Below, piece after piece: positions 372 to 41,097 of a stretch of DNA of 64,000 nucleotides. The notes beneath the pieces are model-generated. The model was not told the origin of the DNA and ran no database searches. It saw only the letters and a program-made list of their open reading frames with translations. The DNA comes from Vicinamibacteria bacterium (GTDB lineage: Bacteria; Acidobacteriota; Vicinamibacteria; Marinacidobacterales; Marinacidobacteraceae), in contig CAXXLQ010000004.1 in assembly GCA_963668695.2 (NCBI GenBank), forward strand, positions 928,001 through 992,000, written 5' to 3'. Every line of letters begins with the position of its first letter. Position 1 is the first letter of the stretch. A program made the translations under genes and the position numbers.

Positions 372-503
372 GCGATGCCGATCTGAGGCGCCCCACCGGG
401 GGAACTGACCGGCGTTCCGAGCCGGTGGCGATATCCGGGGGCAGGAAGATTGTGCATTCGCCCGCCTTGGGCGGGCGGTGCCGGTGTGAACACCGGCGGT
501 CCC
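372..503. repeat. Two REP-like palindromic units, the first carrying the 19-bp module
   Basis: GCCGATCTGAGGCG-CCCCACCGGGGGAACTG-ACCGGCGTTCC and CGCCCGCCTTGGGCGGGCG-GTGCCGGTGTGAACACCGGCGGTCC; related units recur at 2797, 4130-4672, 9262, 34195, 34345, 37770 and 58170. Confidence 0.7.
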
Positions 504-626
504 TGACTGGCAGGCCACCTTCCTTGGGTGGGCATGGCGCGGCTCTCTTCGCTGTTTCGTGAACTGCGGCCGAGGGGGCCGCACAACATTGGCGACGGTC
601 GAGGGGCGGGACGGGCCTGCCACCGA

Positions 627-1550
627 CTATCCGGTGCCCGCTTCCAAGACTCGCTTCAAGCCGGCCACGGCGGCCGCGTGGCGGCTGGCGCTCATGCGGC
701 CGAGGTTCAGGAGCTTCCACCGTACCGCCGGCAGATCCGCGATACCGGGTAATCCCAGCAGATTCCAGTGCGGCTTCCGGTTTTTCACCGAAATCAGGAA
801 ATCGCGGTCCTGGTCGGTCAGCCCGGCGTGGATGGCGGCCACGAGTTCCTCACGGGCGCCGATCAGCCTCTCGAACGGCACGGATCGTCGGGTCATGGGC
901 TCGAACTCGCCTTCATAGAGTTGGCGAATGTCCAGGCGGCGCGGTGCGAGAAGCTCGGCCATGGGCCGGTTGTGACTGATCAGATACACGAGAAAGGTCT
1001 TGACCAGTCGGCGACTGATCCCCTCGTTTTCCAGTAAAAGCGCAATGTCGAAGAGGTCCCGTGGATGTTGCCGGTCGAGGGCGGCGCACATCTTGCCCGC
1101 GTAGAGGTCGTCAAAGGACAGCAGCCGGTTCTCGCTGTAGCCGAGCACCTCCTCCACCGCGGCGGTCACGCGGCGCGTCTCCGGTGGCCAGACCGCACCG
1201 CGCATCACCGGAGAGGCTTCCACCTTGATGCGGTAACCAGCCAGAGTGAGCGTCAGTCGTAGGGCGTCAGGTCGATCTGGGGGTGGAAGGCCGCATTCCA
1301 GGGCCGGGATCGCCCGCTTCACCTCCTCGGCGATCCGAAGGAAACCGTTACGCGCGGCGCGCAGGGTTTCGGCCCGGGGCGACAGCGGCAGATACGCGAG
1401 ATCAATGTCCACCGAGAGACGCGGAAGGTCGCGCAGGAAGAGGTTGATCGCCGTTCCGCCCTTCAGCGCGAACTCCTCCCGACGTGCGACGAAGGGCAGC
1501 ACGCGGACGACCAGCGCCGCCTGACGGTGGAAGCGGTCGCGGTTATCCAT
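627..1550 (-). CDS. AbiEii-family nucleotidyltransferase toxin (type IV TA)
   Basis: ALKGGTAINLF, PRLSVDIDL, LYAGKMCAALDRQHPRDLFD motifs; overlaps the upstream AbiEi-like gene. Confidence 0.92.
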   Translation of the reverse strand: MDNRDRFHRQAALVVRVLPFVARREEFALKGGTAINLFLRDLPRLSVDIDLAYLPLSPRAETLRAARNGFLRIAEEVKRAIPALECGLPPPDRPDALRLTLTLAGYRIKVEASPVMRGAVWPPETRRVTAAVEEVLGYSENRLLSFDDLYAGKMCAALDRQHPRDLFDIALLLENEGISRRLVKTFLVYLISHNRPMAELLAPRRLDIRQLYEGEFEPMTRRSVPFERLIGAREELVAAIHAGLTDQDRDFLISVKNRKPHWNLLGLPGIADLPAVRWKLLNLGRMSASRHAAAVAGLKRVLEAGTG

Positions 1551-2343
1551 GCATCGCGGCGGGGACGGTGATCCCGTATCGGCTCACGAACCGGCCGCCC
1601 TTCGCCAGAACGAGCTTGCCGCGGCCGAGGTCGAAGTCGTCCGGCCGGAGCGGTCGAGCCCAGGGGTGTCCCTGCCGCTCGGCGAGCCAGAAGAAGAGGC
1701 GCCGGATCTTGACGCTGCGTGTGCGCTGCAGCAGGAGTTCGAGGCGTCGCGGCGAGAGATCCGAGAGACCTTCCAGAAAACGTTCGGCGCGCTCGAACGA
1801 CACGCTTTGAGGCACGTCCTTCAACAATTCGAACAGAGCGCGCTCGGGCGTCGAGATCCGGATGGTCCGAAACCCGTCTCCCCATGGCGCGGCGGTGATC
1901 AGGAAGAATGCGCGGGACCGCCCCTCGGCGTCGGAGTCAATCCCGGAGGCGGTGAGCCAGGCGGTGCTTCTTCGGCGGAACGTCTCCGGCAGGTCCAGCC
2001 GGTTCGCCCAAGGGGGCAGCGGATCGAGGCCGTGAAGCTGGATCGAACGTCGGCCCGAGAGGGGGAGTTCCGGTGCCCGTCCCTGCTCTTCCAGCGCGGT
2101 GGCTCCCCCCACGACCAGATCCGTCCCCATTCGCTCAAGGGAGCAGACAACGCCCTGCCAGACCAGGCGCGTCCCGGGACGCACATAGACCCCGGGGCGA
2201 ACGGACAGGAGTTGGCCGCTCTTGATCTGGTTGTCGAGCGCAGAAGTGCTCATGCCGGCCCGCAGGAGCCACCTCCGGGTAGCCACCAGACCATACGGAA
2301 CGAGGTCGAGCAACTCCGTGCGCCGCTTCACGTTGAGGGGCAT
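1543..2343 (-). CDS. AbiEi-family antitoxin / transcriptional regulator (type IV TA)
   Basis: N-terminal wHTH-like region (RPGVY), STPERALFELL, SVKIRRLFFWLAE, DLGRGK and C-terminal YGITVP; coupled to AbiEii. Confidence 0.9.
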   Translation of the reverse strand: MPLNVKRRTELLDLVPYGLVATRRWLLRAGMSTSALDNQIKSGQLLSVRPGVYVRPGTRLVWQGVVCSLERMGTDLVVGGATALEEQGRAPELPLSGRRSIQLHGLDPLPPWANRLDLPETFRRRSTAWLTASGIDSDAEGRSRAFFLITAAPWGDGFRTIRISTPERALFELLKDVPQSVSFERAERFLEGLSDLSPRRLELLLQRTRSVKIRRLFFWLAERQGHPWARPLRPDDFDLGRGKLVLAKGGRFVSRYGITVPAAMHG

Positions 2344-2425
2344 TGGTTTGATTATATTTGTTTATGCAGCGGTCATCGCCGCGTATCCATGTATTATTCA
2401 ACCCACAGGTCAACGCGCTACCGAG

Positions 2426-2788
2426 ATGCATCAGGACAGAACCAACGACATCGCTTCTCGTCTTCTTGAGGCCGTGACACAGGCGGCGGAGAGAGATCGG
2501 GTGGGCCTCTCGGCCGGTGCCTTCAGCAAGACGATGGACTTTCTAACGTCCCTTCCCGCCGAACTACCACGGCCAATCGTCGTCGTCGAATCGGAGGACG
2601 AGATCGGGTTGGATTGGGACGAAGGCGCGGAAAGCGTCGTGAGCCTGACGATCGACGACTCGGACCGGATCGGCTTTGCGGCGCTGTTCGGGCGGGAGCC
2701 TCTCTACGGACGTGCCGAATTCAGTGATGGACTCCCAGAAACGGTCCGTTACCTTCTGGCGCGCCTTTATCCGTCAACACGGCTCTGA
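2426..2788 (+). CDS. Hypothetical protein (120 aa)
   Basis: Protein-like acidic ORF (EDEIGLDWDE) starting MHQDRTND; start chosen at the ATG after the AT-rich intergenic region. Confidence 0.6.
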   Translation: MHQDRTNDIASRLLEAVTQAAERDRVGLSAGAFSKTMDFLTSLPAELPRPIVVVESEDEIGLDWDEGAESVVSLTIDDSDRIGFAALFGREPLYGRAEFSDGLPETVRYLLARLYPSTRL

Positions 2789-2915
2789 GGACGATTTCGC
2801 CCGCCTGCGTCGGGCGGTGCCTGTGTGAACACCGGCGTTCCCGGGCTGGTGAGGCCAGGCGGGCGCGGGTAGTAGAGTGGGATATCGGCCGGGTCGGGTC
2901 CGGCCGATGTGCGAC

Positions 2916-3170
2916 ATGACCACTGTCACCATAACCGTGCCGGAGGATCTGGCGAGCGACTTCAGGGACGCCGGTCTCCTCGCTCCAGAGGCCGCTGAGG
3001 CGATTGAGGCCATCTTGCGGGACAGCCTGCGGCGCTACATGGTCGGAGACGTGATCCGCACTGCCGACCGACTGCTCATTCCCAAGGGACCGCCGCCGAC
3101 GCTGGAAGAGATCCAGGAGGAAGTGAAGGCCGTCCGCGCGGAGATGCGCCAGCGTACGGCTGGTTCTTGA
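2916..3170 (+). CDS. Putative antitoxin with ribbon-helix-helix-like N-terminus
   Basis: MTTVTITVPEDLA start, C-terminal TLEEIQEEVKAVR, overlaps a PIN-domain reading frame. Confidence 0.7.
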   Translation: MTTVTITVPEDLASDFRDAGLLAPEAAEAIEAILRDSLRRYMVGDVIRTADRLLIPKGPPPTLEEIQEEVKAVRAEMRQRTAGS

Positions 3171-3310
3171 CACGAACGTCGTCGTCTCGGCGCTGATCGC
3201 TCGCGGCGTCCCGCGGGAACTGTTCTTGCTCGGCGAGAACAAGGAAGTGCATCTCTTCAGCAGCGAACGGCTTCTTCTTGAAGTCGCGGGAGTGCTGCGG
3301 CGCGAGAACG
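3154..3310 (+). pseudogene. Truncated PIN-domain toxin
   Basis: Reads VRLVLDTNVVVSALIARGVPRELF...SSERLLLEVAGVLRR, then loses PIN similarity where the convergent small gene ends. Confidence 0.7.
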
Positions 3311-3523: not shown

Positions 3524-3539
3524 CGCCGGACCAACCACG

Positions 3540-4129: not shown

Positions 4130-4672
4130 TCCGCCCGCCTCCGGCGGGCGGTGCCGACCCCCACTGGGAGAACTGGCCAGAGGTCGGCGGTCCAGGCCGT
4201 CCCCGCGCTTTTTTCGCGGCTGGCGGTGCGCGGTTTCGACCGCCTCTCGGCGGTCGATGCCGGTCGGAGACCGGCGCTCCGCTGTCGCGCGCGCTCCACG
4301 CGGTTCGGGGGTACGCGGTTCCCGGGCCTGCGCGCCACCCTGTCCTCCGGGGTACGCGCCGAGAAAGGAGCCATCCCGACGGTCAGGGTCCACGCCGCCG
4401 CGGCCCTGCGGGCCGCTGTGCCGGGCCACCGGGAGAACTGCCCGGAGGTCGGCGTTCCAAGCCGTCCCCGCGCTTTTGCTCAGTCGGCGGTACGCGGTTT
4501 CGACCGCCTCTCGGCGGTCGATGCCGGTCGGAGACCGGCGCTCCGCTGTCGCGCGCGCTCCACGCGGTTCGGGGGTACGCGGGGTTTCAAGCCGTCCCCG
4601 CGATTCTTCTCGCTCGGCGGTACGCCCTCCGCGGCGCTACGCGCCGCGGTGCCGGTGTGAACACCGGCGGCC
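4130..4672. repeat. Cluster of REP-like palindromes (BIME-like) including a ~89-bp direct repeat
   Basis: GCGGTTTCGACCGCCTCTCGGCGGTCGATGCCGGTCGGAGACCGGCGCTCC...GGGGGTACGCGG at ~4230 and ~4494; GCCGA/GGTCGGCG hairpins carrying the 19-bp module at 4157 and 4426. Confidence 0.8.
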
Positions 4673-4751: not shown

Positions 4752-4955
4752 TAGCAGCCTGTGGTGAAACCCACGTGAGCGCCGAGGCTGGCCAGTTCTC
4801 CCGGTGGGGGCGAGGCGCCCGGCTGACAAGGCGCGTGAGGGAGGAATACCTGGTGTATTTCGACCGAAACGCAACGCAGAACGGAGCGAAGCGGAGTGGT
4901 TCAGCCGGGATGGATCGCCGGTCGAACGCCGCGTGGGTTTTGCCACAGGCTGCTA
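4752..4955. mobile_element. MITE-like element, copy 1
   Basis: Ends TAGCAGCCTGTGG...CCACAGGCTGCTA (terminal inverted repeats flanked by TA); conserved core GGCTGACAAGGCGCGTGAGGGAGGAATACCTGGTGTATTTCGACCGAAACGCAACG. Confidence 0.85.
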
Positions 4956-5960: not shown

Positions 5961-5964
5961 ACCC

Positions 5965-9211: not shown

Positions 9212-9377
9212 GCGCCAGTGCAGAGTTCTACGTTCGGCACTACGTAGGGCGACAGCGCTTCACCGCCTCGGTGGCCTGCGGCCACCGGTGCCGGTCTGAA
9301 GGCCCCCACCGGGAGAACTGGCGGCGTTCCCTTCACCTGGGTTTTGCCACCGCGTGGCTCCTGCGGGGGGTGCTGCC
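9162..9377. repeat. 43-bp direct duplication of the DUF819 3' end flanking a ~130-bp REP-containing insert
   Basis: ACCTGGGTTTTGCCACCGCGTGGCTCCTGCGGGGGGTGCTGCC at 9162-9204 and 9335-9377. Confidence 0.9.
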
Positions 9378-9383
9378 CGCCTG

Positions 9384-10193
9384 ATGGGCCGAAAACTCCG
9401 GGGGCATCGGGTCTTGGTCACCGGCGCAGCCCGGGGACTCGGCGCCTCGGCCGCGCTGGGGCTCGCCGAAGCGGGCGCGGAGTGCATCCTGCTGGACCGG
9501 TCGCGGGACGAGCTCCAGGCGACCGTCGAAACGGCAGCGAGCCGGGGACCGGGCCCCTTCCACGCGCTGGTCTGCGACCTCGCTGACCGGGAGAGCACGC
9601 TCGACGCGGCGGCCCGCGCGAAGGAGGCCGTCAGGGGAGACTTGCGCGCCCTCGTGCACTGCGCCGCGGTGCTTCATCTGCGGTCCGTAGAGGAGACGAC
9701 GGACGCGCAGTGGGACGAGATGCTGGCCGTGAATCTGCGATCGGCATTCCTGCTCGTTCGGGAGTTCATGCCCGAGCTCCGGGCGGGGAGCGGCGGTTCC
9801 ATCCTGTTCGCCAGCTCGCGGGCAGGAATCATGGGCTTTCCCCAGGAGAGCGCCTACTGCGCCACCAAGTTCGGGATCGAGGGCCTCGCCAAGGCGCTCG
9901 CCGAGGAATGCGGGGACATCGGAATTGTTGCGAACACGATTACGGCGGGGACGCGGCGCATCAAACCCACCGGGCTTTCCCGCGCCGAGGAAGCCGCCCT
10001 TCCCGCGAGCGCACGGTTCTGGGGATCCTCGGAGGCGCTCGGTCCCGCGTTCGCGGCCTTTGCCCTCCTGCCCGGCGCCAGGCGCGGGGCGCCGAACGGG
10101 GGCCGGTTCGAAGCCGACCGGGTGGCGGACATGGTCCGTGGCCGGGGCCTTCCGCTTCCCGGCGAGGCGTGGAAGGAACTTAGCAGCCTGTGA
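9384..10193 (+). CDS. Short-chain dehydrogenase/reductase
   Basis: VTGAARGLG, YCATK catalytic motif; last codons are supplied by MITE copy 2. Confidence 0.88.
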   Translation: MGRKLRGHRVLVTGAARGLGASAALGLAEAGAECILLDRSRDELQATVETAASRGPGPFHALVCDLADRESTLDAAARAKEAVRGDLRALVHCAAVLHLRSVEETTDAQWDEMLAVNLRSAFLLVREFMPELRAGSGGSILFASSRAGIMGFPQESAYCATKFGIEGLAKALAEECGDIGIVANTITAGTRRIKPTGLSRAEEAALPASARFWGSSEALGPAFAAFALLPGARRGAPNGGRFEADRVADMVRGRGLPLPGEAWKELSSL

Positions 10194-10383
10194 ACAAAGT
10201 AGCGCGGCGTTCGACCGGCGATGCATCCCGCCTGAACCGCTTCACTTCGTTCCGCTCATCGTTGCGTTTCGGTCGAAATACACCAGGTATTCCTCCCTCA
10301 CGCGCCTCGTCAGCCGGACCCCCACCGGGAGAACTGGGCCTCACCGATCTCGGCGCTCACGCCACTTTATCCACAGGCTACTA
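10181..10383. mobile_element. MITE-like element, copy 2 (reverse orientation)
   Basis: TAGCAGCCTGTG...CCACAGGCTACTA; core CGTTGCGTTTCGGTCGAAATACACCAGGTATTCCTCCCTCACGCGCC. Confidence 0.85.
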
Positions 10384-20703: not shown

Positions 20704-20888
20704 TAACAGCCTGTGGTGAAACCCAGGCGGCGTTCGAGCGGCGATGCATCCCGGCTGAACCGCGTCGCTTCGCGCCGCTCATCGTTGCGTTTCGGTCGAA
20801 ATACACCAGGTATTCCTCCCTCACGCGCCTTGTCAGCCGGGCGCCTCGCCGCTCTCGGCGCTCACCCGGGTTCCACCACAGGCTGTTA
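20704..20888. mobile_element. MITE-like element, copy 3 (adds 183 bp in frame)
   Basis: TAACAGCCTGTGG...CCACAGGCTGTTA; TTAA at 20703 and 20886. Confidence 0.9.
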
Positions 20889-25487: not shown

Positions 25488-27624
25488 TCAGGGGGCGCTG
25501 ACCGAAACCGCAGCGCGCGCCATGGCGATCCCGGAGGCCGAAGCCATCGCGTCGTAGTAGCCGACAAAGCGCCGGGTTTCCGGGGCGTCGTAGGGGCGCA
25601 GGTTTTCGGCCCAGCGGTATCCGATGGACTGATACCAGAGGGCCACCTCCACGGTGAGCGGGCCCCGGGCCCCGGCCAGATCCACCGAGTAGCGGACCCG
25701 ATCCCCGCCGGCAGCGAAGTCCGCGTCCGCGCCGGCGCGCCCGTGGACCGCGATGTCCGGCCCGGCGGCCGCCTTGTCGAACCCGGTGGGTAGCAGCCGG
25801 TTGTCCTTGACGTAGCGCACGCCGTGGAGGAGGCCCGTCGTGACCGCATCGGTGCTGTCAACCAGAATGGATTCGTAGATCTGGACCTCACCGGCCTCGG
25901 TGATCGCTTCGTAGTGCGGTTCGTAGGCGCGGGGGTTGGCGTCGTTGTCGTTGCCCTCGATCTGCCCGTCCGGGCCGAGGGCCCCCGATTGGAAGAGAAC
26001 TGCTCCGCCCGCATCGCGGACCGTCAACTCCAGCCAGACCCGCCGTGACGGGTAGGCGGTCGGCAGCTTGTGACCGGCGAGGCTTTCGATGACGACCTCA
26101 GCTTCGAGACGGCCCGCTTCGATCCGCGCACCCTCGATCCGGACGCGGGCGCTTTCCTTTTGCAGATGCTCGCGGGCATCCCGGGCCGCGAGCTCCAACT
26201 CCTGCGGCAGGGCTTCGACGCCGAGTTCGGTGCGGTAGCGCAGGAGCATCCGCAACATGAAGGCGTTGCCGCCGCGGAACGAGTGCCGCGAAAGACCCTC
26301 CCGTTCCTCGCCGAGCACCGAACTGATCGGCGCCGGCGTCTCGACCTCCGGCATGTGGCAGTCCTGGCAGGACTGCCGGGTCCGATAGTCGCTCGCGAGC
26401 CACTCCTGATAGGGCGTCTGCTCGGGCAGTTCGCCGATGACCTCGCCGTCCGGCCCCAGCGCGTGGGTGATCAGGGTGTGGCAGGTGGCGCAGAGTTCCG
26501 AATCCTGAATGTGCGAAGCCTCGGTCTGCCGAAAACCCGTCGTCGACTGCATCAGCCGGATCCGGTTGTCCTCGATCTCGAAGGGGCCGAAGATGGCCCG
26601 CTCGCCGTCGGGCCGCTCGGTGTCAATCCGGAAGTTGCCGGTGAGGCTCGCCTCGGTCCCCAGCCCCTCGTCGGTGATCTGGTGGCAAAGCGCGCAGGAC
26701 ACGCCGTCCGCGGCGAGCAGGCCCTGTGGGGTGGAGGCCGAACCGATCGGCAGGTGTTCGAAAACGGTCCCGAGGCCGCCGCCGGCATTCGCCTGGTAGC
26801 GGGCCATCGGCATGTGGCACTTGGAGCATTCATCCTCGATGGCGGCGGCGGCTTCCGGATGGTCCATCGTTTCGCGCCGGACCGCCGCTTGCCAGTACGG
26901 ATCGCGCGCCGAGTTGGCCATCATGGAGGCCCGCCAGTCGAATCCGATCGAGACGTCCTCCCCGGTGGCAGTGGTGAGTCCGTTGTGACAGGCGAGGCAG
27001 GATTGGCTGGTGGTGAACAGATCCGCGGTGTGGACAGCGCGGGGCTCCGACTGGGCGGCGGCCGAAAACCCGGGCGAGCGGATGGCCAGGAGACCCAGCG
27101 CCCCCAGGACGATTCCCAGCGGTAACAGCCTGTGGTGGAACCCGGGTGAGCGCCGAGGTGGGCGAGGCCCAGTTCTCCCGGTGGGGCCAGTTCTCCCGGT
27201 GGGGGCCCGGCTGACAAGGCGCGTGAGGGAGGAATACCTGGTGTATTTCGACCGAAACGCAACGATGAGCGGCGCGAAGCGACGCGGTGAACAGCCGGTG
27301 GTGGAACCCACGTGAGCGCCGAGGCCGGGGAGGCCCAGTTCTCCCGGTGGGGCCAGTCCTCCCGGTGGGGGCCCGGCTGACAAGGCGCGTGAGGGAGGAG
27401 CCCCCACCGGGAGAACTGGCCCGCGTGTATTCCGACCGAAACGCAACGATGAGCGGCGCGAAGCGACGCGGTTCAGCCGGGATGGATCGCCGGCCGAGCC
27501 CCCACCGGGAGAACTGGGCCGCGTGGGTTTCATCACCGGTTGTTTGGCCGGGATGGATCGCCCGCCAGCCCCCACCGAACTGGGCCGCCTGGGTTTCAGC
27601 ACAGGCTGTTAACCAGCGAATCAC
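25488..27624 (-). CDS. Penta-heme c-type cytochrome whose signal-peptide region is interrupted by a nested MITE
   Basis: CLACH, CSKCH, CALCH, CATCH, CQDCH; removing the insert restores MIRWL|PLGIVLGALGLLA. Confidence 0.85.
27123..27611. mobile_element. MITE-like element, copy 4, with a second copy nested inside (~27290-27544)
   Basis: Outer TAACAGCCTGTGG...CACAGGCTGTTA; inner AACAGCCGGTGGTGGAACCC...TTTCATCACCGGTTGTT; two cores. Confidence 0.85.
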
Positions 27625-33167: not shown

Positions 33168-34274
33168 TCACTCGGTCGGACTCCGGACCGCGGCGCCGAA
33201 GGCAGTGGAAGTGGTTTCCTCGACAGTTCCTTCCGGGTTCGCGGTGAGGAAGAGCGCCGCGAGACCGCGGGCTTCGGCGAGTTCGAGTCCCGCGTCGGGG
33301 CCGAGGACGTAGAGCGCCGTAGCCCAGGCGTCGGCATCAACGCACGAGTCCGCAAGCACCGTGACCGAGCCGGTCCGCCGTTCGACCGGGCGGCCGGTGC
33401 GGGGATCCAGGATGTGGGTCCAGAACCGATCCTCCTCGCCGTCGGCGGCGCGGAAATCCCGGTAGCCGCCGGAGGTCGCCATTCCGAGGTCGCGTAGCGG
33501 AAACGACCGGTGGACCCGGGTGGCCAGGCCGCCGGAAGGGTTCTGGACGCCCGCCGTCCATTCGCCCTGCGCCTGAATCTCGCCCCCGACCTCAACGAGA
33601 TGTTCCGTAAACCCCAGTTCGGTGAGCGCAGCGGAAACCCGGTCCACCGCGTAGCCCTTGGCGATTCCGGAGAGATCCATTTCGATATCCGGAATCTGTC
33701 GATGGAGGACGGCGCGCCCGCCGGGTTCGCGTTCGACAAAGAGCAGGCCGCTGCCGACCAGGGAACGGATAGCCTCGAACTCCGCGGAGTTGGGCGCCGG
33801 CTGATCGGGATCCCCGCCGGGACCGAAACCGAAGAGCCGGAGCAGCGGCCCGACGGTGATGTCGAAGGCGCCGCTGGATTCGTCGTGGACGCGAAGCGCC
33901 GATTCGAGAACCAGCGCCAGGGGATCGGAGATCGGCAACGGGCCGGTTTCTTTTGATGCGTTCAGACGGGAGAGTTCGGAATCGGGACGCCAGTTGGACA
34001 TGCTGCGATCCACGGCGTCGAGTTCGGCCTCGATGGCGGCGCGGACGGCGTCGGCGTTTGTTTCGGGGCCGCGGATCTGGACGGTCCAACGGGTACCGAA
34101 GGCTTCGCCGTCGAGGGTCCAGGATGGGGTGGGGGGTGGCGGCGTGCAGGAGGCGGCCCAGGTCAGGGCTGTGAGCGCGAGCAGCGCTTCGGGTTTCGCC
34201 CGCCTCCGGCGGGCGGTGCCGGTCTGAAGGCCCCCACCGGGAGAACTGGCGGCGTTCCCTAATCGCAGCGCCAT
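33168..34274 (-). CDS. apbE: FAD:protein FMN transferase ApbE
   Basis: FDITVGPL, DLSGIAKGYAVD, VEVGGE, ATSGGY, HILDPRTG, ADAWATAL; lipobox WAASC; start uncertain. Confidence 0.92.
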   Translation of the reverse strand: MALRLGNAASSPGGGLQTGTARRRRAKPEALLALTALTWAASCTPPPPTPSWTLDGEAFGTRWTVQIRGPETNADAVRAAIEAELDAVDRSMSNWRPDSELSRLNASKETGPLPISDPLALVLESALRVHDESSGAFDITVGPLLRLFGFGPGGDPDQPAPNSAEFEAIRSLVGSGLLFVEREPGGRAVLHRQIPDIEMDLSGIAKGYAVDRVSAALTELGFTEHLVEVGGEIQAQGEWTAGVQNPSGGLATRVHRSFPLRDLGMATSGGYRDFRAADGEEDRFWTHILDPRTGRPVERRTGSVTVLADSCVDADAWATALYVLGPDAGLELAEARGLAALFLTANPEGTVEETTSTAFGAAVRSPTE

Positions 34275-34461
34275 GCCGTCTACCGACACAGCCCCCTCCG
34301 CTGTCGCGCGCGCTTCACGCCGCTCAGCATCGTGCGTTCTCGCGGCCCTCCGGGCCGCAGTGCCGGCCCCCACCGGGAGACTGGCCGGAGGTCGGCGTTC
34401 CCTTGCCTTCGCGCCGTGATGCCGACCGAAGACCGCCGGCCCCTTCCCGGCCCGGGCCGCA

Positions 34462-35691
34462 TCAGCCGAAGTCGTCGAAGGCGATGTTTTCCGGCTCCAC
34501 GCCGAGGCTGTCGAGCATCTGGAGGCAGGCCTTGAGCATGAGCGGCGGGCCGCAGAGGTAGTACTCGGCGTCTTCGGGGCTCGGGTGGTCCTTCAGGTAG
34601 TGGTCGTAGAGGACCTGGTGGATGAAGCCGGTGTAGCCGGCCCAGTTGTCCTCGGGGAGGGGCTCGGATAGCGCCAGTTTCCAGTCGAAGTTGGGATTCT
34701 CGGCGGCGATCGCGTCGAAGTCGTCCTGGTAGAAGGCTTCCCGGAGGCTCCGGGCGCCGTACCAGAAGGACACCCGGCGGTTCGTCCGGAGCCGCCGGAA
34801 CTGGTCGAAGATGTGGGAGCGCATCGGCGCCATGCCGGCCCCGCCGCCGACAAAGACCATTTCGTGGTCGGTCTCCTTGGCGAAGAACTCGCCGAAGGGG
34901 CCCGAAATCGTCACCTCATCCCCCGGTTTCAGCCCGAAGAGCCAGGACGTCATCTTGCCGGGCGGGACATCGGGCATCCGGGGCGGCGGCGAGGCGATCC
35001 GCACGTTCAGCAGGATGATGCCCCGCTCCTCGGGATAGTTCGCCATCGAGTAGGCGCGCACCACCTCCTCCCCATCGGCCACCGAAGCGGTGTACTTCCA
35101 CATGTTGAAGCGGTCCCAGTCGTCCCGGTACTCCTCCTCGATCTCGAAATCCCGGTAACGGAACTCGTACGGCGGGCAATCGATCTGGATGTAGCCGCCG
35201 GCGCGGAAGGGCACGGCCTCTCCCGGCGGCAGCTCGAGCACCAGTTCCTTGATGAAGGTCGCCACGTTGTGGTTCGAGCGGACCCGGCATTTCCACTGCC
35301 GCACGCTGAAGAGTTCGGCCGGGATCTCGATTTTCAGATCCTGCTTCACCCGGACCTGGCAGGAGAGCCGGACGCCCTCGCGCTCCTCTCCGCGGGTGAG
35401 GTGGCTGCGCTCGGTCGGAAGGACGGCGCCGCCCCCGTCGAGCACCTTCAGGGTGCATACCCCGCAACTCCCCTTCCCGCCGCAGGCGGAGGGGATGAAG
35501 AGCTGCTGCGCCGCGAGGGTGCCGAGCAGCGTGCCCCCCGCCGGCGTGCAGATGTCGTGCTCCGGATCGTCGTTGATCCGGATCGTCACCTCCCCGGTGG
35601 CCACCAGGCGCTTTCGCGCGTAGAGGAGCGCGACCACCAGCGCCAGGATGACCCCGGTGAAGCCGGCAACCCCGAGGAGGACGGTGGTCAT
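34462..35691 (-). CDS. nqrF: Na+-translocating NADH:quinone reductase subunit F
   Basis: [39 protein letters not shown], terminal FDDFG. Confidence 0.97.
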
Positions 35692-35697
35692 GGACGA

Positions 35698-36318
35698 CTA
35701 CAACTGGATGCCGCCGAAGGCCATGAAACCGATGGCCATCAGCCCGGTGAGCAGGAAGGTGATGCCGAGCCCGCGCAGCCCGGCCGGAATGTGGTGGTAC
35801 CGCAGTCGCTCCCGGATCCCGGCCAGCGCGGCGATCGCGAGCGCCCAGCCGAGGCCGGACCCGAACCCGAACACCGCCGCTTCCGGCAGGGTGAGACCGC
35901 GCTCCACCATCAGCAGCGACGCGCCGAGGATCGCGCAGTTGACCGCGATGAGCGGCAGGAAAACCCCGAGGGCGGCGTGGAGGATCGGAAAGAAGCGGTC
36001 GAGCGCCATTTCGACCACCTGGACGGTGGCCGCGATCGTCCCGATGAAGGTGAGGAAGCGGAGGAACGACAGGTCCTGGCCCGACAGCGAGGCGTGCGCC
36101 CAGCCGAGAGCTCCGGGACGGAGCAGATAGTCGTTGATGGCGTGGTTCAGGGGAACCGTGACCGTGAGGACGAAGACCACCGCCGCCCCGAGGCCGATGG
36201 CGGTGCTGACCCGCTTCGAGACGGCGAGGAACGAGCACATCCCCAGGAAGAAGGTCAGCGCCATGTTCTCGACGAAGATCGCCTTGATCGCGATGTTCAG
36301 ATAGTCCTGAAGCATCAC
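35698..36318 (-). CDS. nqrE: Na+-NQR subunit E
   Basis: [32 protein letters not shown]. Confidence 0.96.
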
Positions 36319-36938
36319 TCCGCCTCGTTCTGCTCGGGCCGGAAGGTCCGCAGGCCCCAGATCAGGAAGCCGATCACGAAGAACGCGCCGGGGGACAGGC
36401 TCATCAGCCCGTTGGGGACGAACCAGCCTCCCTCGGAAGCAAGCGGCAGCACCGGGATGCCCCAGAAGGAGCCGGCGCCCAGGATCTCGCGGAACGCTCC
36501 GGTGACGAGCAGGATGGCCGCGTACCCGAGGCCGTTTCCGATCCCGTCGATGAGGCTCCTGAGCGGCGGGTTCTGCATCGCGAACGCCTCCGCGCGGCCC
36601 ATGATGATGCAGTTCGTGATGATGAGACCCACGAAGACGCTGAGCTGCTTCGAGATCTCATAGACATACGCCTTCAGGATCTGGTCGGTGACGATGACCA
36701 GCGAGGCGATGATGGTGAGTTGGACGATGATCCGGATGCTGGTCGGGATCAGGTTCCGCAGCAGACTGATCGACAGATTGGAGAGCCCGGTCACCGCCAC
36801 CACCGCGACGCTCATCACGAACGAGGTCTGCATGCCGGTGGTGACCGCGAGCGCCGAACAGATCCCGAGCACCTGAAGCGCGATCGGGTTGTTTTGGATG
36901 AGCGGATCCATCAGGACCCGCCGCACTTCGGTGGCCAT
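36315..36938 (-). CDS. nqrD: Na+-NQR subunit D
   Basis: [39 protein letters not shown]. Confidence 0.96.
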
Positions 36939-36944
36939 ACGCGT

Positions 36945-37727
36945 CTAGTCGCCGGCGGCGCTCAGTCGTTCCCCAAGTCTTTGCAGGAAAGGGCCGAAGC
37001 CATTCTCGGCCAACCAGAAACGGAGCAGATTGGTGACGCCGCGACTGGTCATGGTGGCGCCCGACAGCCCGTCCACCCGGTGCGGGTCCTCGGCCGGCGG
37101 CCCGGCGGCGGCCCGCGCCACCTCGATCACCGGCTCGCCGGAGGGGCCGAACACCCGTCGTCCCGGCCAAAGCGCTTTCCAATTCGGGTTGTCCACCTCC
37201 CCGCCCAGCCCGGGGGTCTCCTTGTGCTCGTAGAAGGTGAGTCCGCGCACCGTGTCGAGATCCGCCTCGAGCGCCAGGTAGCCGTAGAGCACGGACCAGA
37301 GCCCCTGCCCCCGGATCGGCAGCACGACCGCCTCGAGTTGTCCACCTTGTTCGATGAGGTAGACCACCGAGCGTTTCTCCACCCGCCGGACGCGCGCCAG
37401 GTTTTTCGGAACCGGGCGCGAGGAATCCGTGATGCCGGCCTCGACCAGCGGATCCACGCTCGTCGGATCCACCTCGGGAAGCTCGGCGCCGGTTTCGAGA
37501 TCCACCACCACCGCGCGGACCGCCGCGAAGCGCTCGGCCATCGCCGACTCGGAGAGATCCTCGTCGGGAACGGCGAGCCCGGCGGCAAGAAGAACGTTGC
37601 GCTGCCGCTCCCGCTCGGCGTTTGCCGCCTGCAGATCCCGCAGGGCGACCGCCGAGCCCGACACCATCACCGCACAGACGAGGCACACGGCCGCCGCGAA
37701 CCCCAGGATGTAGCGAGCGGTTCTCAC
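36945..37727 (-). CDS. nqrC: Na+-NQR subunit C
   Basis: GLWS, HKETPGLGGEV, VDGLSGATMTS (FMN-Thr). Confidence 0.96.
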   Translation of the reverse strand: MRTARYILGFAAAVCLVCAVMVSGSAVALRDLQAANAERERQRNVLLAAGLAVPDEDLSESAMAERFAAVRAVVVDLETGAELPEVDPTSVDPLVEAGITDSSRPVPKNLARVRRVEKRSVVYLIEQGGQLEAVVLPIRGQGLWSVLYGYLALEADLDTVRGLTFYEHKETPGLGGEVDNPNWKALWPGRRVFGPSGEPVIEVARAAAGPPAEDPHRVDGLSGATMTSRGVTNLLRFWLAENGFGPFLQRLGERLSAAGD

Positions 37728-37760
37728 GAAAACGGCGGAAGGATGTTAGCCCTCGTCCCG

Positions 37761-39053
37761 CTAGCCTGTTTCGCCGCCTGCGGCGGCGATGCCGGTCTGA
37801 AGGCCTCCACCGGGAGAACTGGCGGCGCCCCGGGCCCTCCGGCGGACGTTGCTCCGCAGGGCGAAATGGTCGATGAGCGGCGCGAAGACATTCATCAGCA
37901 GGATGGAGAGCATCATGCCTTCCGGGTAGGCGGGATTCACGACCCGGATCAGCACCACCAACACCCCGATGAGGAAACCGTAGACCACCCGCCCGCCGTT
38001 CGTCGAGGGCGCCGTCACCGGCTCGGTGGCCATGAACACGGCGCCGAAGGCCCACCCGCCCAGCAGGTAGTGCCACCAGAACGGCATTGCGAAAAACGGA
38101 TTGGTATCCGAACCGATCAGGTTCAGGAGGCCGCCCACTACGAAGGTCCCTGCCGCCACCGCCAGCATGATCCGGAGCGAACCGATCCCGGTCGCTACCA
38201 GCACGAGCGCACCGAAGAGGCAGGCGAGCACCGAGGTTTCGCCCATGGAACCGGGCAGCAGACCGATGAAGGCGTCCCACGCCGAGATCCCCGCACCGCC
38301 CGCCGGATGGAACGTCTCTTGAAGCGCCTCCGGACCGATGAGACTGAGCCGCGCGAGCCAGGTCGCCCCGCTGACCGCGTCGGGAGCGGTGTCGGCGGCG
38401 ATCCAGATGCGGTCCCCGCTGAGGTCGCTCGGATAGGCGAAGAACAAAAACGCCCGGGCGGTCAGCGCCGGGTTCAGGATGTTGAAACCGCTGCCTCCGA
38501 AAATCTCCTTGCCCACCACCACGCCGAAGCTGATGCCGAGCGCGACCTGCCAGAGCGGAACGGTGGGCGGCAGGATGAGCGGGAAGAGCATCCCGGTGAC
38601 CAGGAAGCCCTCGCTGACCTCGTGGCGCCGGACCGCCGCGAAGACCACTTCCCAGGCGCCGCCGACGGCGAAGGTGACGATCAGGACCGGCAGGTACCAG
38701 AGGCCGCCATGGACCACCGCAGCGAGCACGCTGTCCGGAGAAAACCCGATGCCGAGGGCCTCGATGACGCCGCTCCGCCACCCCGGAAGGGGCGACGCGC
38801 CGTGGGCGATTGCCAGGTTCGCCTGAAGGCCGGTGTTGTAGAAGGCCATCGCCACCGTGCCGGCGAGGGCCGCCACCACCGTGAACATGAGCCGCTTCAT
38901 GTCGAGGCGGTCGCGGGCGTGCGACGGCCCGGCCGTGGTCTTCCCGGGGGTGTAGAGGAAGGTGTCCTGCGCGTCCCAGAGCGGCCACAGGCGATGGAGC
39001 GGGCCCCCGGCTTCGAAGGGAGCCCCGAGCCGGTCCAGCAGCGAACGCAGCAC
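37761..39053 (-). CDS. nqrB: Na+-NQR subunit B
   Basis: DMKRLM, KEIFGG, NPALTARAFLFFAYP, SGAT, GSMGETS, NPAYPEG. Confidence 0.96.
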   Translation of the reverse strand: MLRSLLDRLGAPFEAGGPLHRLWPLWDAQDTFLYTPGKTTAGPSHARDRLDMKRLMFTVVAALAGTVAMAFYNTGLQANLAIAHGASPLPGWRSGVIEALGIGFSPDSVLAAVVHGGLWYLPVLIVTFAVGGAWEVVFAAVRRHEVSEGFLVTGMLFPLILPPTVPLWQVALGISFGVVVGKEIFGGSGFNILNPALTARAFLFFAYPSDLSGDRIWIAADTAPDAVSGATWLARLSLIGPEALQETFHPAGGAGISAWDAFIGLLPGSMGETSVLACLFGALVLVATGIGSLRIMLAVAAGTFVVGGLLNLIGSDTNPFFAMPFWWHYLLGGWAFGAVFMATEPVTAPSTNGGRVVYGFLIGVLVVLIRVVNPAYPEGMMLSILLMNVFAPLIDHFALRSNVRRRARGAASSPGGGLQTGIAAAGGETG

Positions 39054-39059
39054 CGGACC

Positions 39060-39262
39060 TAACAGCCTGTGGTGGAACCCGGGTGAGCGCCGAGGCTGGC
39101 CAGTCTCCCGGTGGGGGCGAGGCGCCCGGCTGACAAGGCGCGTGAGGGAGGAATACCGGGTGTATTTCGACCGAAACGCAACGCAGAACGCAGCGAAGCG
39201 GAGTGGTTCAGCCGGGATGGATCGCCGGCCGAACGCCGCGCGGGTTTCACCACAGGCTGTTA
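39060..39262. mobile_element. MITE-like element, copy 5, inserted at the nqrA stop codon
   Basis: TAACAGCCTGTGG...CCACAGGCTGTTA with full core. Confidence 0.9.
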
Positions 39263-40642
39263 ACCCTCCTTTTCCAGGGTGTCCAGGATCCGGCGCAGCG
39301 CCGGGGCGTAGTCGTTCTTCGCGGGGCAGGCGAAGCTCAGCAGACCCAGGTCCTCCTCGATGAGTTCGAGCACCCCAAGTTCCTCGGCCCGCTCGATGTC
39401 CTCCATCAGCAGGGCCCGGAGCAGCATCACCGCCGGGATGTCGAAAGCCATCACCCGCTCATAGCTCCCGATCGGCACGATGGCGCGCCGGGAACCGTAC
39501 GTCCCGGTGGTGAGGGGGCGGGCTCCGCCGGGCAGCACCGCGGAGAGGAAGGCGCGGCTCACCGAAACCGCGCCCGCACCGGGAGCGAGCCAGCCCAGGA
39601 ACCGCCGCCGGCGGTCTTCGGCGAGCACCGTCACCTGCCGGTGATAGCGGCCGAGGTAGCCCGCCACCTCATCCGAGACGGTCCGCCCGGAGAGGAGAGA
39701 CCCGGATATGACCCGGCGCTCGCCCGGAGTCCCGCCTTCGGAGGTGGCGAAGTCCACGAGCGACGCGCCGATGGGAGCGCGCATGAGGGTCGGCCGCCGG
39801 ACCGGAGGGCCTCCCAGCGACACCACCCGGTACGGATCACCGGCCCCCGTTCGGAAGAGCTTGCCGATGGAGGCCAGGTCCTGGGCGTCGAGGTGCCAGG
39901 CCTCGTGGCCGCGGCGGACCGGAGCCAGACGGTGGATGTGGAGTCCCGCGGTACCGGCTGGATGAGGCCCGGCGAACTCCTCGTGTCGGACCCGGCCCGC
40001 TTCCTTCACCGGAAGCTGCCGGCCGGCGCGGGAGCAGACGAATACCGGTCCCTCGGTGAGACGCGAAACGGCTCCGATTCCCCAGTCGAGATCGGTAGCC
40101 CGGTCCCGGACCGCGGCCACCGGATCCGGGGCGAGGGGGGCGGTGTCGGTGGCAGTGACGAAGATCGCGTGAGGCCGCGTCCCGGGGTTCGCCACCCGCC
40201 CGAAGGGCCGGGTGCGGATCGCGGTCCACTCCCCCGATTCGAGCAGAAGGTCCCGGACCGCGTCGTCGCCGAGCGCGTCGGGATGGCGCCCCGACCAGGC
40301 TCCCGGGGCATGTCCCGAGCTGCCCCCGCCGGCGCGTTCCCCGGGGTTCACCTCGATGACGAGCGAGACGAAGGCCCGGCGCTCGCCGCGATGCACCGCG
40401 GTCACCCGTCCCGCAAGCGGCGCGGTGAACCGGACCCCGGGCGTTTTCTTGTCCTCGAAGAGCACCGCACCCCGGGAAACCGAATCTCCCTCCCGGACCG
40501 TCATCGTGGGCCGGGTCCCGGGGTAGTCCGCGCCGAGCAGCGCGATCCTGGAGGGGATCCGGAGTTCGCCCGCCGGACCGTCCGGTGCGGGAGCCCCCAT
40601 GACGCGGATGTCGAATCCGCGGCGCACGGTATGAAGACTCAT
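39260..40642 (-). CDS. nqrA: Na+-NQR subunit A
   Basis: LFEDKKTPGV, TRPFG, GPHPAG, SGSLLSG, YLGRYH, CPAKNDY; ATG at 40642. Confidence 0.93.
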   Translation of the reverse strand: MSLHTVRRGFDIRVMGAPAPDGPAGELRIPSRIALLGADYPGTRPTMTVREGDSVSRGAVLFEDKKTPGVRFTAPLAGRVTAVHRGERRAFVSLVIEVNPGERAGGGSSGHAPGAWSGRHPDALGDDAVRDLLLESGEWTAIRTRPFGRVANPGTRPHAIFVTATDTAPLAPDPVAAVRDRATDLDWGIGAVSRLTEGPVFVCSRAGRQLPVKEAGRVRHEEFAGPHPAGTAGLHIHRLAPVRRGHEAWHLDAQDLASIGKLFRTGAGDPYRVVSLGGPPVRRPTLMRAPIGASLVDFATSEGGTPGERRVISGSLLSGRTVSDEVAGYLGRYHRQVTVLAEDRRRRFLGWLAPGAGAVSVSRAFLSAVLPGGARPLTTGTYGSRRAIVPIGSYERVMAFDIPAVMLLRALLMEDIERAEELGVLELIEEDLGLLSFACPAKNDYAPALRRILDTLEKEG

Positions 40643-41097
40643 TAGCGGCCCGTGGACAAGGTGGGGCGAGCACCGAGAGCGGCGAGGCCCAGTTCTCCCG
40701 GTGGGGCCAGTTCTCCCGGTGGGGCCAGTTCTCCCGGTGGGGGCCCGGCTGACAAGGCGCGCGAGGGAGGAGCTCCCACCGGGAGAACTGGCCCGAGTGT
40801 CTTTCGACCGAAGCGCAACGATGAGCGACGCGCAGCGGCAGTTCTCCCGGTGGGGGGGCGGTTCAGCCGGGATGGATCGCCGCTCGCTTCCGGAGCGGGG
40901 CGACAGCACCGCGCAGACCCCGGAGCGGAAGGGACAGGGGGCGGGGCACCCCGACCCCTAGCCCTGCTGGCTCGGGCTTCCGGAGCGGGGCGACAGCACC
41001 GCGCAGACCCCGGAGCGGAAGGGACAGGGGGCGGGGCACCCCGACCCCTAGCCCTTCTGGCTCGGGAATGCCGGTTCAGTTTGTTCACGGGCTGCTA
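40643..41097. mobile_element. Expanded, diverged MITE-like element, copy 6, abutting the nqrA start codon
   Basis: TAGCGGCCCGTG...CACGGGCTGCTA ends; core present; five 18-19-bp modules; internal 90-bp tandem duplication (40886 and 40976). Confidence 0.8.

Follow-up and report, generated by a model that had tools for sequence, protein, structure and literature searches.

The short sequence that recurs among the repeats of this 64,000-nucleotide stretch of DNA (hereafter the window), which comes from a lineage of sponge-associated Acidobacteria, is probably, at roughly 60%, a modular sub-repeat of the BOX or BIME kind: one component of a mosaic system, carried by a MITE and by REP hairpins and shuffled by conversion, slippage and box-to-box recombination. 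The repeated 19-mer, CCCCCACCGGGAGAACTGG, is the core of an optional box of 20–22 nt, composed of GC and the 18-nt unit CCCCACCGGGAGAACTGG; the base after the unit is usually C or G, followed by C. BOX, BIME and other modular repeats were described decades ago. The present system is unusually clean and large for studying how such repeats gain and lose modules, with one 18-nt unit, at least five sites and hundreds of MITE copies. In this uncultured symbiont one can measure directly how often, in which direction and over what tract length dispersed repeats exchange sequence, and a new insertion mechanism, should there be one, would come to light.

When up to three mismatches are allowed, the window holds 18 copies of the 19-mer where 0.06 would be expected, and none of 100 shuffles reaches 18. 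The matches lie at 390, 4158, 4792, 9303, 10319, 27169/27187, 27335/27353, 27401, 27499, 34231, 37804, 40689/40707/40725, 40773 and 40838. Four degenerate boxes accompany them: a partial copy at 4423, one with a 4-nt internal deletion at 27567, and two with 1-nt deletions at 34364 and 39098. A three-mismatch match at 41297 looks like a chance occurrence. The original prediction spoke of more than 20 copies, each inside a MITE or a REP hairpin, in both orientations and sometimes head-to-tail, and all of this agrees with what we find; the head-to-tail copies have a period of 18. The empty sites that it quoted, GCCGACCGGAGGTCGGCG at 58188 and GCCGGTCTGAAGACCGGCG at 58229, are both present, as is the MITE copy that it described as boxless (Table 1).

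Table 1. Filled and empty repeats in the window, and the corresponding loci in relatives.
Feature	Coordinates	Strand	Details
Degenerate box (3 mismatches), 3' arm of REP1-type hairpin	390..408	+	
Box (1 mismatch) in REP2-type hairpin, GCCGA..CCAGAGGTCGGCG	4158..4176	+	
Partial/degenerate box, second REP2-type hairpin	4423..4441	+	
202-bp MITE copy, single box at S4	4753..4954	+	Box at 4792-4810, minus orientation
Box in REP1 hairpin	9303..9321	+	Surrounding 131-bp REP block (9204-9335) wholly missing from relatives G004 and G001
Box at MITE site S3, A-type allele CAGCCGGA-C...	10319..10337	+	Host MITE reversed
Empty MITE copy, 183 bp, no box	20705..20887	+	
Composite of 2.5 MITE units	27124..27610	+	S3 double arrays 27169-27205 and 27335-27371, minus; S1 empty in unit 1 (ATA ~27236), filled at 27401-27419; S2 filled 27499-27517, degenerate S2 box (4-nt deletion) ~27567-27583; block entirely missing in G004 and G001
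Box in REP1 hairpin	34231..34249	+	
Box with 1-nt deletion in REP2 hairpin	34366..34384	+	G004 ortholog empty (GTGCCGACCGGAGG)
Box (1 mismatch) in REP1 hairpin	37804..37822	+	REP1 missing from G001 and from the strain of run X9
201-bp MITE copy, one 17-nt box variant at S4	39061..39261	+	Box ~39100-39116, minus; G004 ortholog with S4 empty, S5 and S2 filled (3/5 sites differ); empty TA site in G001
MITE-derived unit	40689..40856	.	S3 triple array 40689-40743, minus; S1 filled 40773-40791, plus; S5 filled 40838-40856, minus
Empty REP2 (58188-58205) and empty REP1 (58229-58247) hairpins	58188..58247	+	

A genome-wide count, which had been proposed as a check, far exceeds the earlier tally: the 4.1-Mb genome (G000) contains 1655 matches at up to three mismatches (1123 exact, 403 with one, 87 with two and 42 with three), of which about 110 fall in duplicated strain haplotigs. 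At S3, the tandem site of the MITE described below, the arrays comprise 1423 single boxes, 141 doubles, 2 triples, one of four and one of five. The box is found in 17 of the 18 genomes searched from the same family, and in none of the 12 from sister families.

The main carrier in the genome is a single 183-bp, TA-flanked, hairpin-forming MITE, which offers the box no fewer than five fixed sites; the box lies there in either orientation, and it forms tandem arrays at one of the sites (S3, where the arrays of 1–5 units are located). Several REP hairpins, which are here high-copy, GC-rich extragenic palindromes, serve as secondary carriers. We count 1014 matches to the terminal inverted repeat (TIR) and 337 TIR-bounded elements in G000. 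A set of 302 TIR-bounded MITEs forms one cluster, and once the 18-nt units are removed the host length is 182–184 bp in 268 of them. Their lengths therefore climb a ladder of 183+18n, from no box (71 elements) through one (53), two (54), three (62), four (47) and five (14) to six (1). The MITE has TA on both sides, and a matching empty TA site is seen in G001. Besides the filled forms, the genome contains 226 empty hairpins of REP1 type and 14 of REP2 type. The hosts in G000 are thus the MITE and at least two types of REP; in another genus they are a different REP and other positions of the MITE, and in low-copy congeners the box is mostly a motif adjacent to, or internal to, a REP.

Each site of the box is either empty or filled, and these two discrete alleles also differ in their junction bases. 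The variable stretch at S1 is 11 nt long in 291 copies and 29 nt in 296; at S2 the corresponding numbers are 137 and 194. Empty and filled junctions read GGAATACC versus GGAGC+18+CCC and CGAACGCC versus CGAGC+18+GCC in the MITE, and AAGACCGG versus AAGGC+18+CCGG in a REP, so that the filled alleles carry fixed substitutions (ATA versus GC..C, AC versus GC, A versus GC). One view that had been raised against an acquired module, namely that the 19-mer is an ancestral, fixed-position part of one repeat that was lost from some copies, holds to the extent that the positions are fixed and two-allelic, but it fails in that the positions are many and lie in unrelated hosts. The independence of the box from any one host repeat, as originally proposed, is upheld by 106 distinguishable flank contexts, by its presence in the MITE and in REPs of two genera, and by changes in place between strains.

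Occupancy of the MITE is combinatorial, since 27 of the 32 possible patterns occur among 245 typed elements. At S1, S2 and S3/4 the state of the box is nearly uncorrelated with non-adjacent host SNPs (r2 at most 0.07); S5 is the exception, with r2 of 0.82 for the adjacent base and 0.31 for the next. Pairs of elements that have at most one host difference mostly agree in state: of 74 such pairs, 10 disagree at S1, 17 at S2 and 19 at S3/4, versus 50%, 47% and 71%, respectively, of random pairs. The state at S1 is unlinked even to a polymorphic base only 3 nt away (filled copies have a G:A ratio of 163:89, empty copies one of 105:61), which requires either a hypermutable base or exchange of the cassette alone.

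Strain haplotigs within the assembly, with 108 and 110 aligned box copies (103 of them shared), provide the strain comparison that had been suggested, and they reveal nine real differences in state; the strains compared differ by less than 1%. Three flips occur at S3, all between CGGGC followed by G and CGGAC+18, and two at S1, between ATA and GC+18+C with more than 100 bp identical on either side. Two differences concern the number of units in the S3 array. One flip falls within a cluster of 7 SNPs in 120 bp that resembles a conversion tract. One REP1 differs by a clean indel of 19 nt with GGCC as its flanks, and a 265-bp deletion has both ends in boxes. Of the 12 indels of at least 8 bp that separate the haplotigs at either end of contig C4, 4 are due to boxes. 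The box itself is a recombination substrate, and the deletions that boxes cause between repeats matter for the assembly and strain-typing of these sponge symbionts. Most of the state changes recreate pre-existing alleles, which suggests that the sequence is copied from elsewhere among the repeats and that the box is not newly inserted. The density of SNPs is the same in repeats (107/16706) and in unique DNA (1735/256433), and co-converted SNPs accompany only 1 of 5 canonical presence/absence flips; the tracts must therefore be very short, or the donors nearly identical.

The following scheme would accommodate these patterns. The number of boxes may grow mostly by hitch-hiking on the multiplication of the MITE and the REPs, while states would change through short-tract ectopic gene conversion between copies. 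Slippage or unequal exchange, with occasional deletion at GCC/GGCC microhomology, could alter the tandem site, and entry into new hairpin contexts would be a rare event of illegitimate, microhomology-guided copying. Besides the even SNP density and the unlinked state at S1, three facts sit poorly with conversion. The clean REP1 indel fits precise deletion or true insertion but does not fit conversion to the common empty allele; conversion does not account for the arrival of the box, exactly bounded, at a dozen or more unrelated positions; and it leaves unexplained the unequal load of congeners per MITE end. Complete congeneric genomes differ more than 100-fold in their number of boxes, which does not scale with the number of MITE ends: G010 has 13 boxes (16 with a looser 17-mer search) and 132 ends, G000 has 1526 boxes and 1014 ends, with ends counted at up to four mismatches in G000 and up to three in the other genomes.

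We consider it unlikely that the box is a functional recognition site, maintained by selection or molecular drive and merely distributed by the repeats, and the same holds for the candidate roles, which are binding by the MITE transposase or by a nucleoid or regulatory protein, or an uptake-type signal. The exact sequence is conserved across two genera, but so is the host MITE. The roughly 1500 copies are divided equally between the strands and spread evenly along the chromosome, one site in G018 carries a dialect variant (CCTACCGGGAGAACCGG), and box states correlate with one another (odds ratios 4–6) more than with the host background. Against this, 532 of the 1655 copies are mismatched, and the columns of the box, at least 0.99 identical, are at the same level as conserved host columns, so that no extra constraint is needed. 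No copy was seen in supported coding or unique DNA, all high-quality copies being in repeat contexts; the few unusual contexts and long-open-frame candidates are other small repeats or 5' (upstream) leaders, as judged from reading frames rather than from a protein family search. The box, moreover, shows no likeness to the ends of the MITE or of IS630, and no protein that binds it has been identified.

We give still less weight to the view that the box is a tiny non-autonomous mobile or templated insertion that spreads through the repeats independently of them, whether by a hypothetical enzyme or by replication template switching at single-stranded hairpins with GCC/CCGG microhomology. It would explain why the 106 flank contexts share exact boundaries (the bases preceding the core are G in 79, C in 82 and C in 103 of them, and C or G, then C, follow it), why unrelated hairpins host the box in two genera, including hairpin loops in G014, and why boxes in the palindromic REP1 occupy one arm or the other as mirror images. 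The clean 19-nt indel, the lack of co-converted SNPs in most flips and the disproportionate load also speak for it. The alignments of filled and empty sites, however, show no consistent target-site duplication, and filling adds 18 nt at S1, S2, S3 and S5 but 19 nt at S4 and in the REPs. The same site-specific substitutions recur in independent flips in place, which a fresh insertion would not recreate, and the forms that would arise if boxes inserted into the common empty alleles, or were simply excised, are almost lacking: a form of S1 lacking both box and ATA occurs in 0 copies, and its counterpart at S2 in 1. The same observations weigh against the original suggestion of a scar left by an element that targets hairpins. 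Templated addition by a reverse transcriptase, also suggested, finds no candidate enzyme in a search with the RVT_1 profile (PF00078), which gives 0 matches in G000 (91.7% complete); G000 likewise has 0 matches to Y1_Tnp, the RAYT profile (PF01797), for which control genomes did give matches.

An association with IS110, raised earlier as well, is rejected in the form of a scar or target, since the box lies neither at the IS ends, nor in the non-coding RNA region, nor at the insertion point. The single IS110 is inserted in a REP2 after GGAGGTC, a position different from the box sites; nearby boxes sit in neighbouring REPs 100–200 bp away, and no box was found within a copy of IS110 or of IS630, copies of which exist in the genome.

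Yet more doubtful is the boldest form of the insertion idea, in which the 20–22-nt box is a micro-element that propagates by copying itself into hairpin-forming DNA and is smaller than any mobile unit so far seen in bacteria. If this were true, a dedicated activity, or a box-specific template switch at stalled hairpins, would do the copying, and the cassette would toggle with its neighbouring bases untouched, as a parasite of parasites driving through selfish repeat families. An artefact (adapter, barcode or assembly error) has next to no probability: exact copies occur in MAGs that several projects produced with several assemblers, both on long-read chromosomes and on NODE_ and k141_ contigs; run contigs from several studies span box-bearing REPs (X5 record 22 covers 35248-38563 of the window gaplessly); and the reversed pattern, searched as a control, gives 0 matches in 31 genomes. 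Since the box is internal to these chromosomes and contigs, an adapter or barcode is rejected.

Several known systems resemble this one in part. The boxB module of BOX elements is about 45 nt long. In Streptococcus pneumoniae and S. suis, these elements have the layout boxA-boxB(n)-boxC, and one boxB of S. suis is flanked by differing terminal boxes, according to PMC3049150. As described there, BOX elements share with ours a small, non-coding, TIR-bounded composite structure, an internal module that is absent, single or tandem, that varies in number between strains and that folds largely independently of the remaining element, and, in the S. suis boxB, the use of one module in different settings, much as our box is common to the MITE and the REPs (PMC3049150). 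TIRs with target duplication, an optional arrayed module and strain-variable module number are all found here, as in a BOX-type modular MITE. It differs in that the box is 18–20 nt long, occupies at least five separate sites in both orientations, lies also inside REP hairpins and has single-site alleles with fixed junction substitutions, in Acidobacteriota and with no known sequence relation; at 68% GC and in a different phylum, homology to boxA, boxB or boxC is not expected.

Mosaics of REP (PU) hairpins and short, conserved, non-palindromic extra-PU motifs, in set arrangements, also resemble our system. They are the BIMEs of enterobacteria (PMC3333891, PMC2817692). Unlike BIMEs, our system yielded no RAYT, and the box forms 18-nt tandem arrays and lies in hairpin arms, loops and the MITE rather than in linkers alone. 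The host MITE, with its TIRs, its TA flanks and the empty TA site in G001, belongs among the TA-duplicating MITEs of IS630/Tc1-mariner type (RUP, Correia-like). This likeness concerns the carrier; the box has neither TIRs of its own nor a TA or other constant target duplication, and is flanked only by GCC/GGCC-type bases. DNA uptake sequences (DUS/USS) occur in thousands of exact, strand-equal copies, with inverted pairs in hairpins, genus-level dialects and copy numbers that vary widely among relatives; they are also found in unique and coding DNA, where they arise by point mutation. The box is similar in its high exact copy number, strand equality, inverted pairs, dialects and variable load, but it is confined to repeats and forms tandem arrays.

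Paired inverted boxes would be expected to make the MITE hairpin longer. Opposite-orientation pairs are barely favoured in two-box elements (22 versus 18), so that compensation within the hairpin is not demonstrated. Predicted stability per nucleotide is lower with one box (-0.573 versus -0.610), and with two to six boxes, the inverted ones being paired, it is raised to between -0.60 and -0.74.

The repeated sequence that the original prediction had picked out from the sequence alone is readily recovered. Its core, CCCCCACCGGGAGAACTGG, matches the window 18 times at up to three mismatches, compared with 0.06 matches expected from shuffles, and the positions agree with those predicted. Four further predicted copies are also present, but they are degenerate, with small internal deletions, and fall outside the 18 matches. 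Both hairpins of the REP type that had been described as empty are real, and the MITE said to lack the sequence is a 183-bp copy. We refer to this optional sequence of 18-20 nt (GC plus an 18-nt unit) as the box. In the genome that holds the window, G000 (4.10 Mb, 67.5% GC, four contigs), there are 1655 matches at up to three mismatches, about 110 of which fall in duplicated strain haplotigs; 1123 are exact, and 403, 87 and 42 carry one, two and three mismatches, respectively. We found no strand or replichore bias in G000, the strands being equal and the copies spread evenly along the chromosome, and no Rfam match within the window at gathering thresholds.

We searched 30 relatives for the box pattern at up to one mismatch, and found it in 15 of 15 genomes of the same genus, in 17 of 18 of the same family, and in 0 of 12 from two sister families; a reversed control pattern gave 0 in every genome searched. 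The matching contigs are titled as MAGs named Candidatus Marinacidobacterium, Vicinamibacteria or Acidobacteria, from various assemblers, and the stretch is present in public runs, a number of which are labelled sponge metagenome, from eight or more studies. Since the box is found across several assemblers and these studies, an adapter or barcode origin, which had been raised as a possible refutation, is excluded. Logan contigs of public runs collapse repeats, making box-only polymorphism unreadable, and we scored only the absence of whole units, two of which are missing from the strain of one run (see the table). Likewise, sequencing depth over the MITEs, that of RNA run X17 included, is the sum of hundreds of copies and is uninformative on expression.

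The main carrier of the box in G000 is a TA-flanked MITE with ends AACAGCCTGTGGTGAAACCC (1014 end matches at up to four mismatches, and 337 end-to-end pairs). Its lengths form a ladder of 183, 201, 219, 237, 255 and 273 bp, plus a +1 series. We considered whether the 183-, 201- and 219-bp classes might be distinct families lacking boxes and rejected this, since clustering after removal of the 18-nt units yields one family of 302 elements with lengths of 183+18n, of which 268 are then 182-184 bp. The number of elements with zero, one, two, three, four, five and six units is 71, 53, 54, 62, 47, 14 and 1, respectively. A consensus by length class is misleading, because elements of both orientations were mixed. 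A mini-MITE of about 75 bp, with two variant-type ends (..GTGGACAAAGTGACGTG..) and one box between them, occurs at one mapped locus and nine similar ones.

When tandem copies, whose period is 18, are collapsed, the boxes of G000 form 1568 arrays in 195 flank clusters: 1423 single, 141 double, two triple, one of four and one of five. Five fixed sites within the MITE make up the large clusters: S1, between GTGAGGGAGGA and CCGGGTGTATTTCGACC (311 arrays); S2, which adjoins the right end (302, plus variants); S3, which adjoins CTTGTCAGCCGG and is the sole site with tandem arrays (219); S4 (156, plus variants); and S5 (63). Other clusters correspond to positions in either arm of the REP hairpins GCCGGTCTGAAGACCGGC and GCCGACCGGAGGTCGGC. 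Among 106 flank contexts, the bases preceding the 17-nt core are G (79), C (82) and C (103), and those following it are C or G (74/30) and then C (80), while the farther flanks are variable.

Alignment of filled against empty sites, the comparison proposed with the original prediction, defines the junctions and reveals each site to be sharply two-allelic. Two lengths separate the anchors at S1, 11 nt (291 copies) and 29 nt (296), and the same two recur at S2 (137 and 194 copies, respectively); at S3/S4 the series of lengths is 10/11, 29/30, 47/48 and 65/66 nt. The net gain is 18 nt at S1, S2, S3 and S5, and 19 nt at S4 and the REPs. The alleles differ by more than a mere insertion, however, as the junction bases change too: GGAATACC when empty versus GGAGC+18+CCC when filled at S1, CGAACGCC versus CGAGC+18+GCC at S2, CGCGC versus CGCCC+18 at S5, AAGACCGG versus AAGGC+18+CCGG at hairpin repeat REP1, and CCGACCGG versus CCGGC+18+CC(A/G)G at REP2.

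Strain-variant duplicates within the G000 assembly, 96.5-99.9% identical overall, probably explain its 9.3% contamination figure, and they inflate its repeat counts by about 7%. They also permit a check on strain polymorphism, and differences in box state are indeed found. The haplotig alignments contain 108 and 110 facing box copies, of which 103 are shared; nine differences are real, three alignment artefacts having been removed. Three are flips at S3, all between CGGGC|GCCTCG and CGGAC+18+GCCTCG, one of them located in a patch with 7 SNPs in 120 bp. Two are adjacent flips at S1, ATA versus GC+18+C, with more than 100 bp identical on either side. The others are two changes of array number at S3, one 15-nt microhomology deletion within an S1 box, and one clean, GGCC-flanked difference of 19 nt in REP1, whose empty form is of the rare AAGGCCGG type (6 copies, versus 58 of the common type). 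In addition, contig C1 lacks 265 bp, with the ends of the missing stretch in two boxes, and has three additional 71-bp end-plus-box units; between the two ends of C4, box events make up 4 of 12 indels of at least 8 bp. An orthologous MITE and an orthologous REP2 differ in occupancy between G000 and its congener G004. A 43-bp direct duplication of the upstream gene's 3' end, unusually long for a repeat insertion, brackets a 131-bp block in the window.

Coordinates of the repeats, insertion elements and strain-variant stretches discussed in the text (C1, C3 and C4, contigs of G000; L130, L131, L162 and L163, stretches of G000; L100, stretch of G018, a genome of genus g4 in the same family; G001 and G004, congeners)
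Feature	Location	Observation
Empty REP hairpins	window 58188, 58229	
Box-free MITE	window 20705-20887	
Orthologous MITE	window 39061-39261	G000, S4 filled; G004, S5 and S2 filled; G001, empty TA site
Orthologous REP2	window ~34366	filled in G000, empty in G004
131-bp block with REP1 hairpin and box	window 9204-9335	absent from G004 and G001
Whole MITE/REP units	window 39057-39259, 37732-37833	missing in strain of run X9
Haplotig C1 (144.5 kb)	C4:304184-421223	~99.5% identity
Haplotig C3 (31 kb)	C4:3505137-3538141	97.6-99.7% identity
First 148 kb vs last 138 kb of C4	C4:9354-148038 vs C4:3775642-3913787	96.5-99.5% identity
Complete IS630-type element	L130 2053-3194 (C4 ~667052-668193)	between two MITEs
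IS110-family element	L131 ~1600-3200 (C4 ~482100-483700)	within REP2 hairpin, right after GCCGACCGGAGGTC
Mini-MITE	L130 3193-3270	
Conserved leader	L162 ~2480-2540 (C4:1639308)	
Conserved leader	L163 ~2370-2430 (C4:2603392)	
44-bp tandem arrays	L100 ~10090-10200	half-REP hairpin plus one box
GGAGGAACTGGCGGGGCC repeat	region orthologous to window ~40650-40700	~4 times in G001, once in G004
Tandem array, ~23 kb	C4:2803874-2826790	

We typed 298 elements at S3/4, S1, S5 and S2. Among the 245 with clean lengths, 27 of the 32 possible occupancy patterns are seen, the commonest being all-empty (62) and then 2,1,0,1 (30). The states of S1, S2 and S3/4 reach r2 of at most 0.07 with non-adjacent host SNPs, while blocks of host SNPs reach 0.9; S5 is the exception and follows host SNPs (r2 of 0.82 with the adjacent base and 0.31 with the next). 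The three main states are intercorrelated, with odds ratios of 4.3-5.7 and r2 of 0.12-0.16. Pairs of elements with at most one host difference, some of which are haplotig duplicates, mostly have the same state, differing in 10 of 74 cases at S1, 17 of 74 at S2 and 19 of 74 at S3/4, against 50%, 47% and 71% of random pairs. So box states are inherited with the copy, yet their rate of change is close to that of one substitution per element.

The number of boxes in complete or near-complete congeners is 13 in G010, 78 in G014, 114 in G009, 665 in G008, 710 in G001 and 740 in G004, compared with 1526 in G000. This load is not proportional to the number of MITE ends (132, 26, 119 and 493 in G010, G014, G009 and G008, respectively, and 1014 in G000 at up to four mismatches). 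In the low-load genomes G010 and G014, most boxes either are associated with REPs, inside or alongside, or occupy the loops of other GC hairpins. The 240 kb examined of G018 contain 63 copies. There, the box replaces AC in GCCGGACTGGAGTCCGGC of the genome's own REP, a gain of 18 nt, and also occurs in tandem arrays. The G018 MITE has boxes at positions unused in G000, one of which replaces TT in GCGCC(TT)GTCAGCC (+18). G018 further has a two-mismatch box dialect at S2 and 13-nt sub-repeats. The box has therefore entered at least a dozen unrelated positions, always in hairpin-forming repeats. At two loci in G000, genes are preceded by a shared, conserved leader some 100 nt long, in which a box is enclosed by two short CGCG stems; this pair is another small repeat family bearing the box.

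In our reading, to which we give a probability of roughly 0.6, the box is an optional module within a system of mosaic repeats, and its states change by conversion. The MITE and REPs would carry the box to high copy number, and changes of state would arise by short-tract ectopic gene conversion from other repeat copies. Such copying is indicated because changes arising independently in place yield the same site-specific alleles again, together with the linked substitutions. The arrays at S3 may change by slippage or unequal exchange; boxes also mediate deletions, and occasional microhomology events could produce the non-canonical forms. Three observations speak against simple conversion: SNP density in the haplotigs is equal in repeats (107/16706) and unique DNA (1735/256433), co-converted SNPs accompany one canonical flip only, and the state of S1 shows no linkage to a polymorphic base 3 nt from it. 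Thus, either the tracts are very short or the exchange is cassette-specific. The system is tractable for measuring exchange among dispersed repeats.

According to PMC3049150, BOX elements consist of a boxB tandem array of variable length enclosed by boxA and boxC; strains differ in the number of modules, and in S. suis one and the same boxB can be bounded by terminal boxes of different kinds. The system described here has all of these functional features. It differs in that the module is tiny, occupies at least five separate sites in both orientations as well as REP hairpins, and has two-allele junctions. As an optional module, the box also resembles the extra motifs of BIMEs. Literature searches on Marinacidobacterium (0 papers for the name) and on modular MITEs and gene conversion, supplements aside, returned nothing specific and no description of the box.

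The box might be a selected site, putatively of a binding or uptake type. Identity of its columns is at least 0.99 both at S1 (n=135) and at S2 (n=125), which equals that of conserved host columns, and at these two sites we see no constraint beyond that of the latter. We consider selection of this kind improbable, though compatible with the modular-box reading.

Conversion leaves unexplained the first arrival of the box at each new hairpin and the 100-fold spread of load among congeners. A true micro-insertion mechanism for the box is, in our estimate, quite unlikely. The forms predicted by simple excision, or by insertion into the common empty allele, are nearly absent (0 copies of S1 with neither box nor ATA, and 1 copy of the S2 equivalent), and the comparison of filled and empty sites yielded no consistent target duplication. 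Among the enzyme families searched (RVT_1, Y1_Tnp, DDE_3 and DEDD_Tnp_IS110), profiles for RVT_1 and for Y1_Tnp (RAYT) have no match in G000, while controls responded. IS630-type DDE_3 genes occur at three loci, and IS630-type transposases lie at C4:667625 and C4:3754338; the complete element is bounded by inverted ends of its own (GTGTGGTGTCC...), with TA at either side, and TGTGGTG is all that these ends have in common with those of the MITE. The single IS110-family element is inserted in REP2 at a position other than that of the box. It had been suggested that the box might be found at the ends of a larger element or in an ncRNA, but the IS630 and IS110 copies are without it, and no unique RNA gene or locus containing it was found in G000; a search for such a source among partial 11-mers outside full copies returned degenerate boxes.

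A template-switch origin for the inverted S3/S1 pair is without support, because the pre-existing CCCGG/CCGGG stem is not an axis of mirror symmetry for the two boxes, and a likeness to a tRNA primer-binding site was rejected, on inspection, by its orientation.

Folded with RNA parameters, the empty MITE is predicted to be one long hairpin. Predicted stability per nt drops with one box (-0.573, versus -0.610 when empty) and rises with two to six boxes (from -0.60 to -0.74). Pairing of the left arm's minus-oriented boxes with plus-oriented boxes at S1 and S2 would account for the rise. In two-box elements, however, opposite orientations are just slightly commoner (22 versus 18).

Finally, two tandem repeats were observed. 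The 18-nt repeat GGAGGAACTGGCGGGGCC and the box have in common a GGAACTGG core and the 18-nt period; the likeness may mean that this repeat is related to the box or is its precursor, or may be coincidental. Self-comparison of the long tandem array of G000 gives matches at offsets that are multiples of about 351 bp, with identities of 90-94%.
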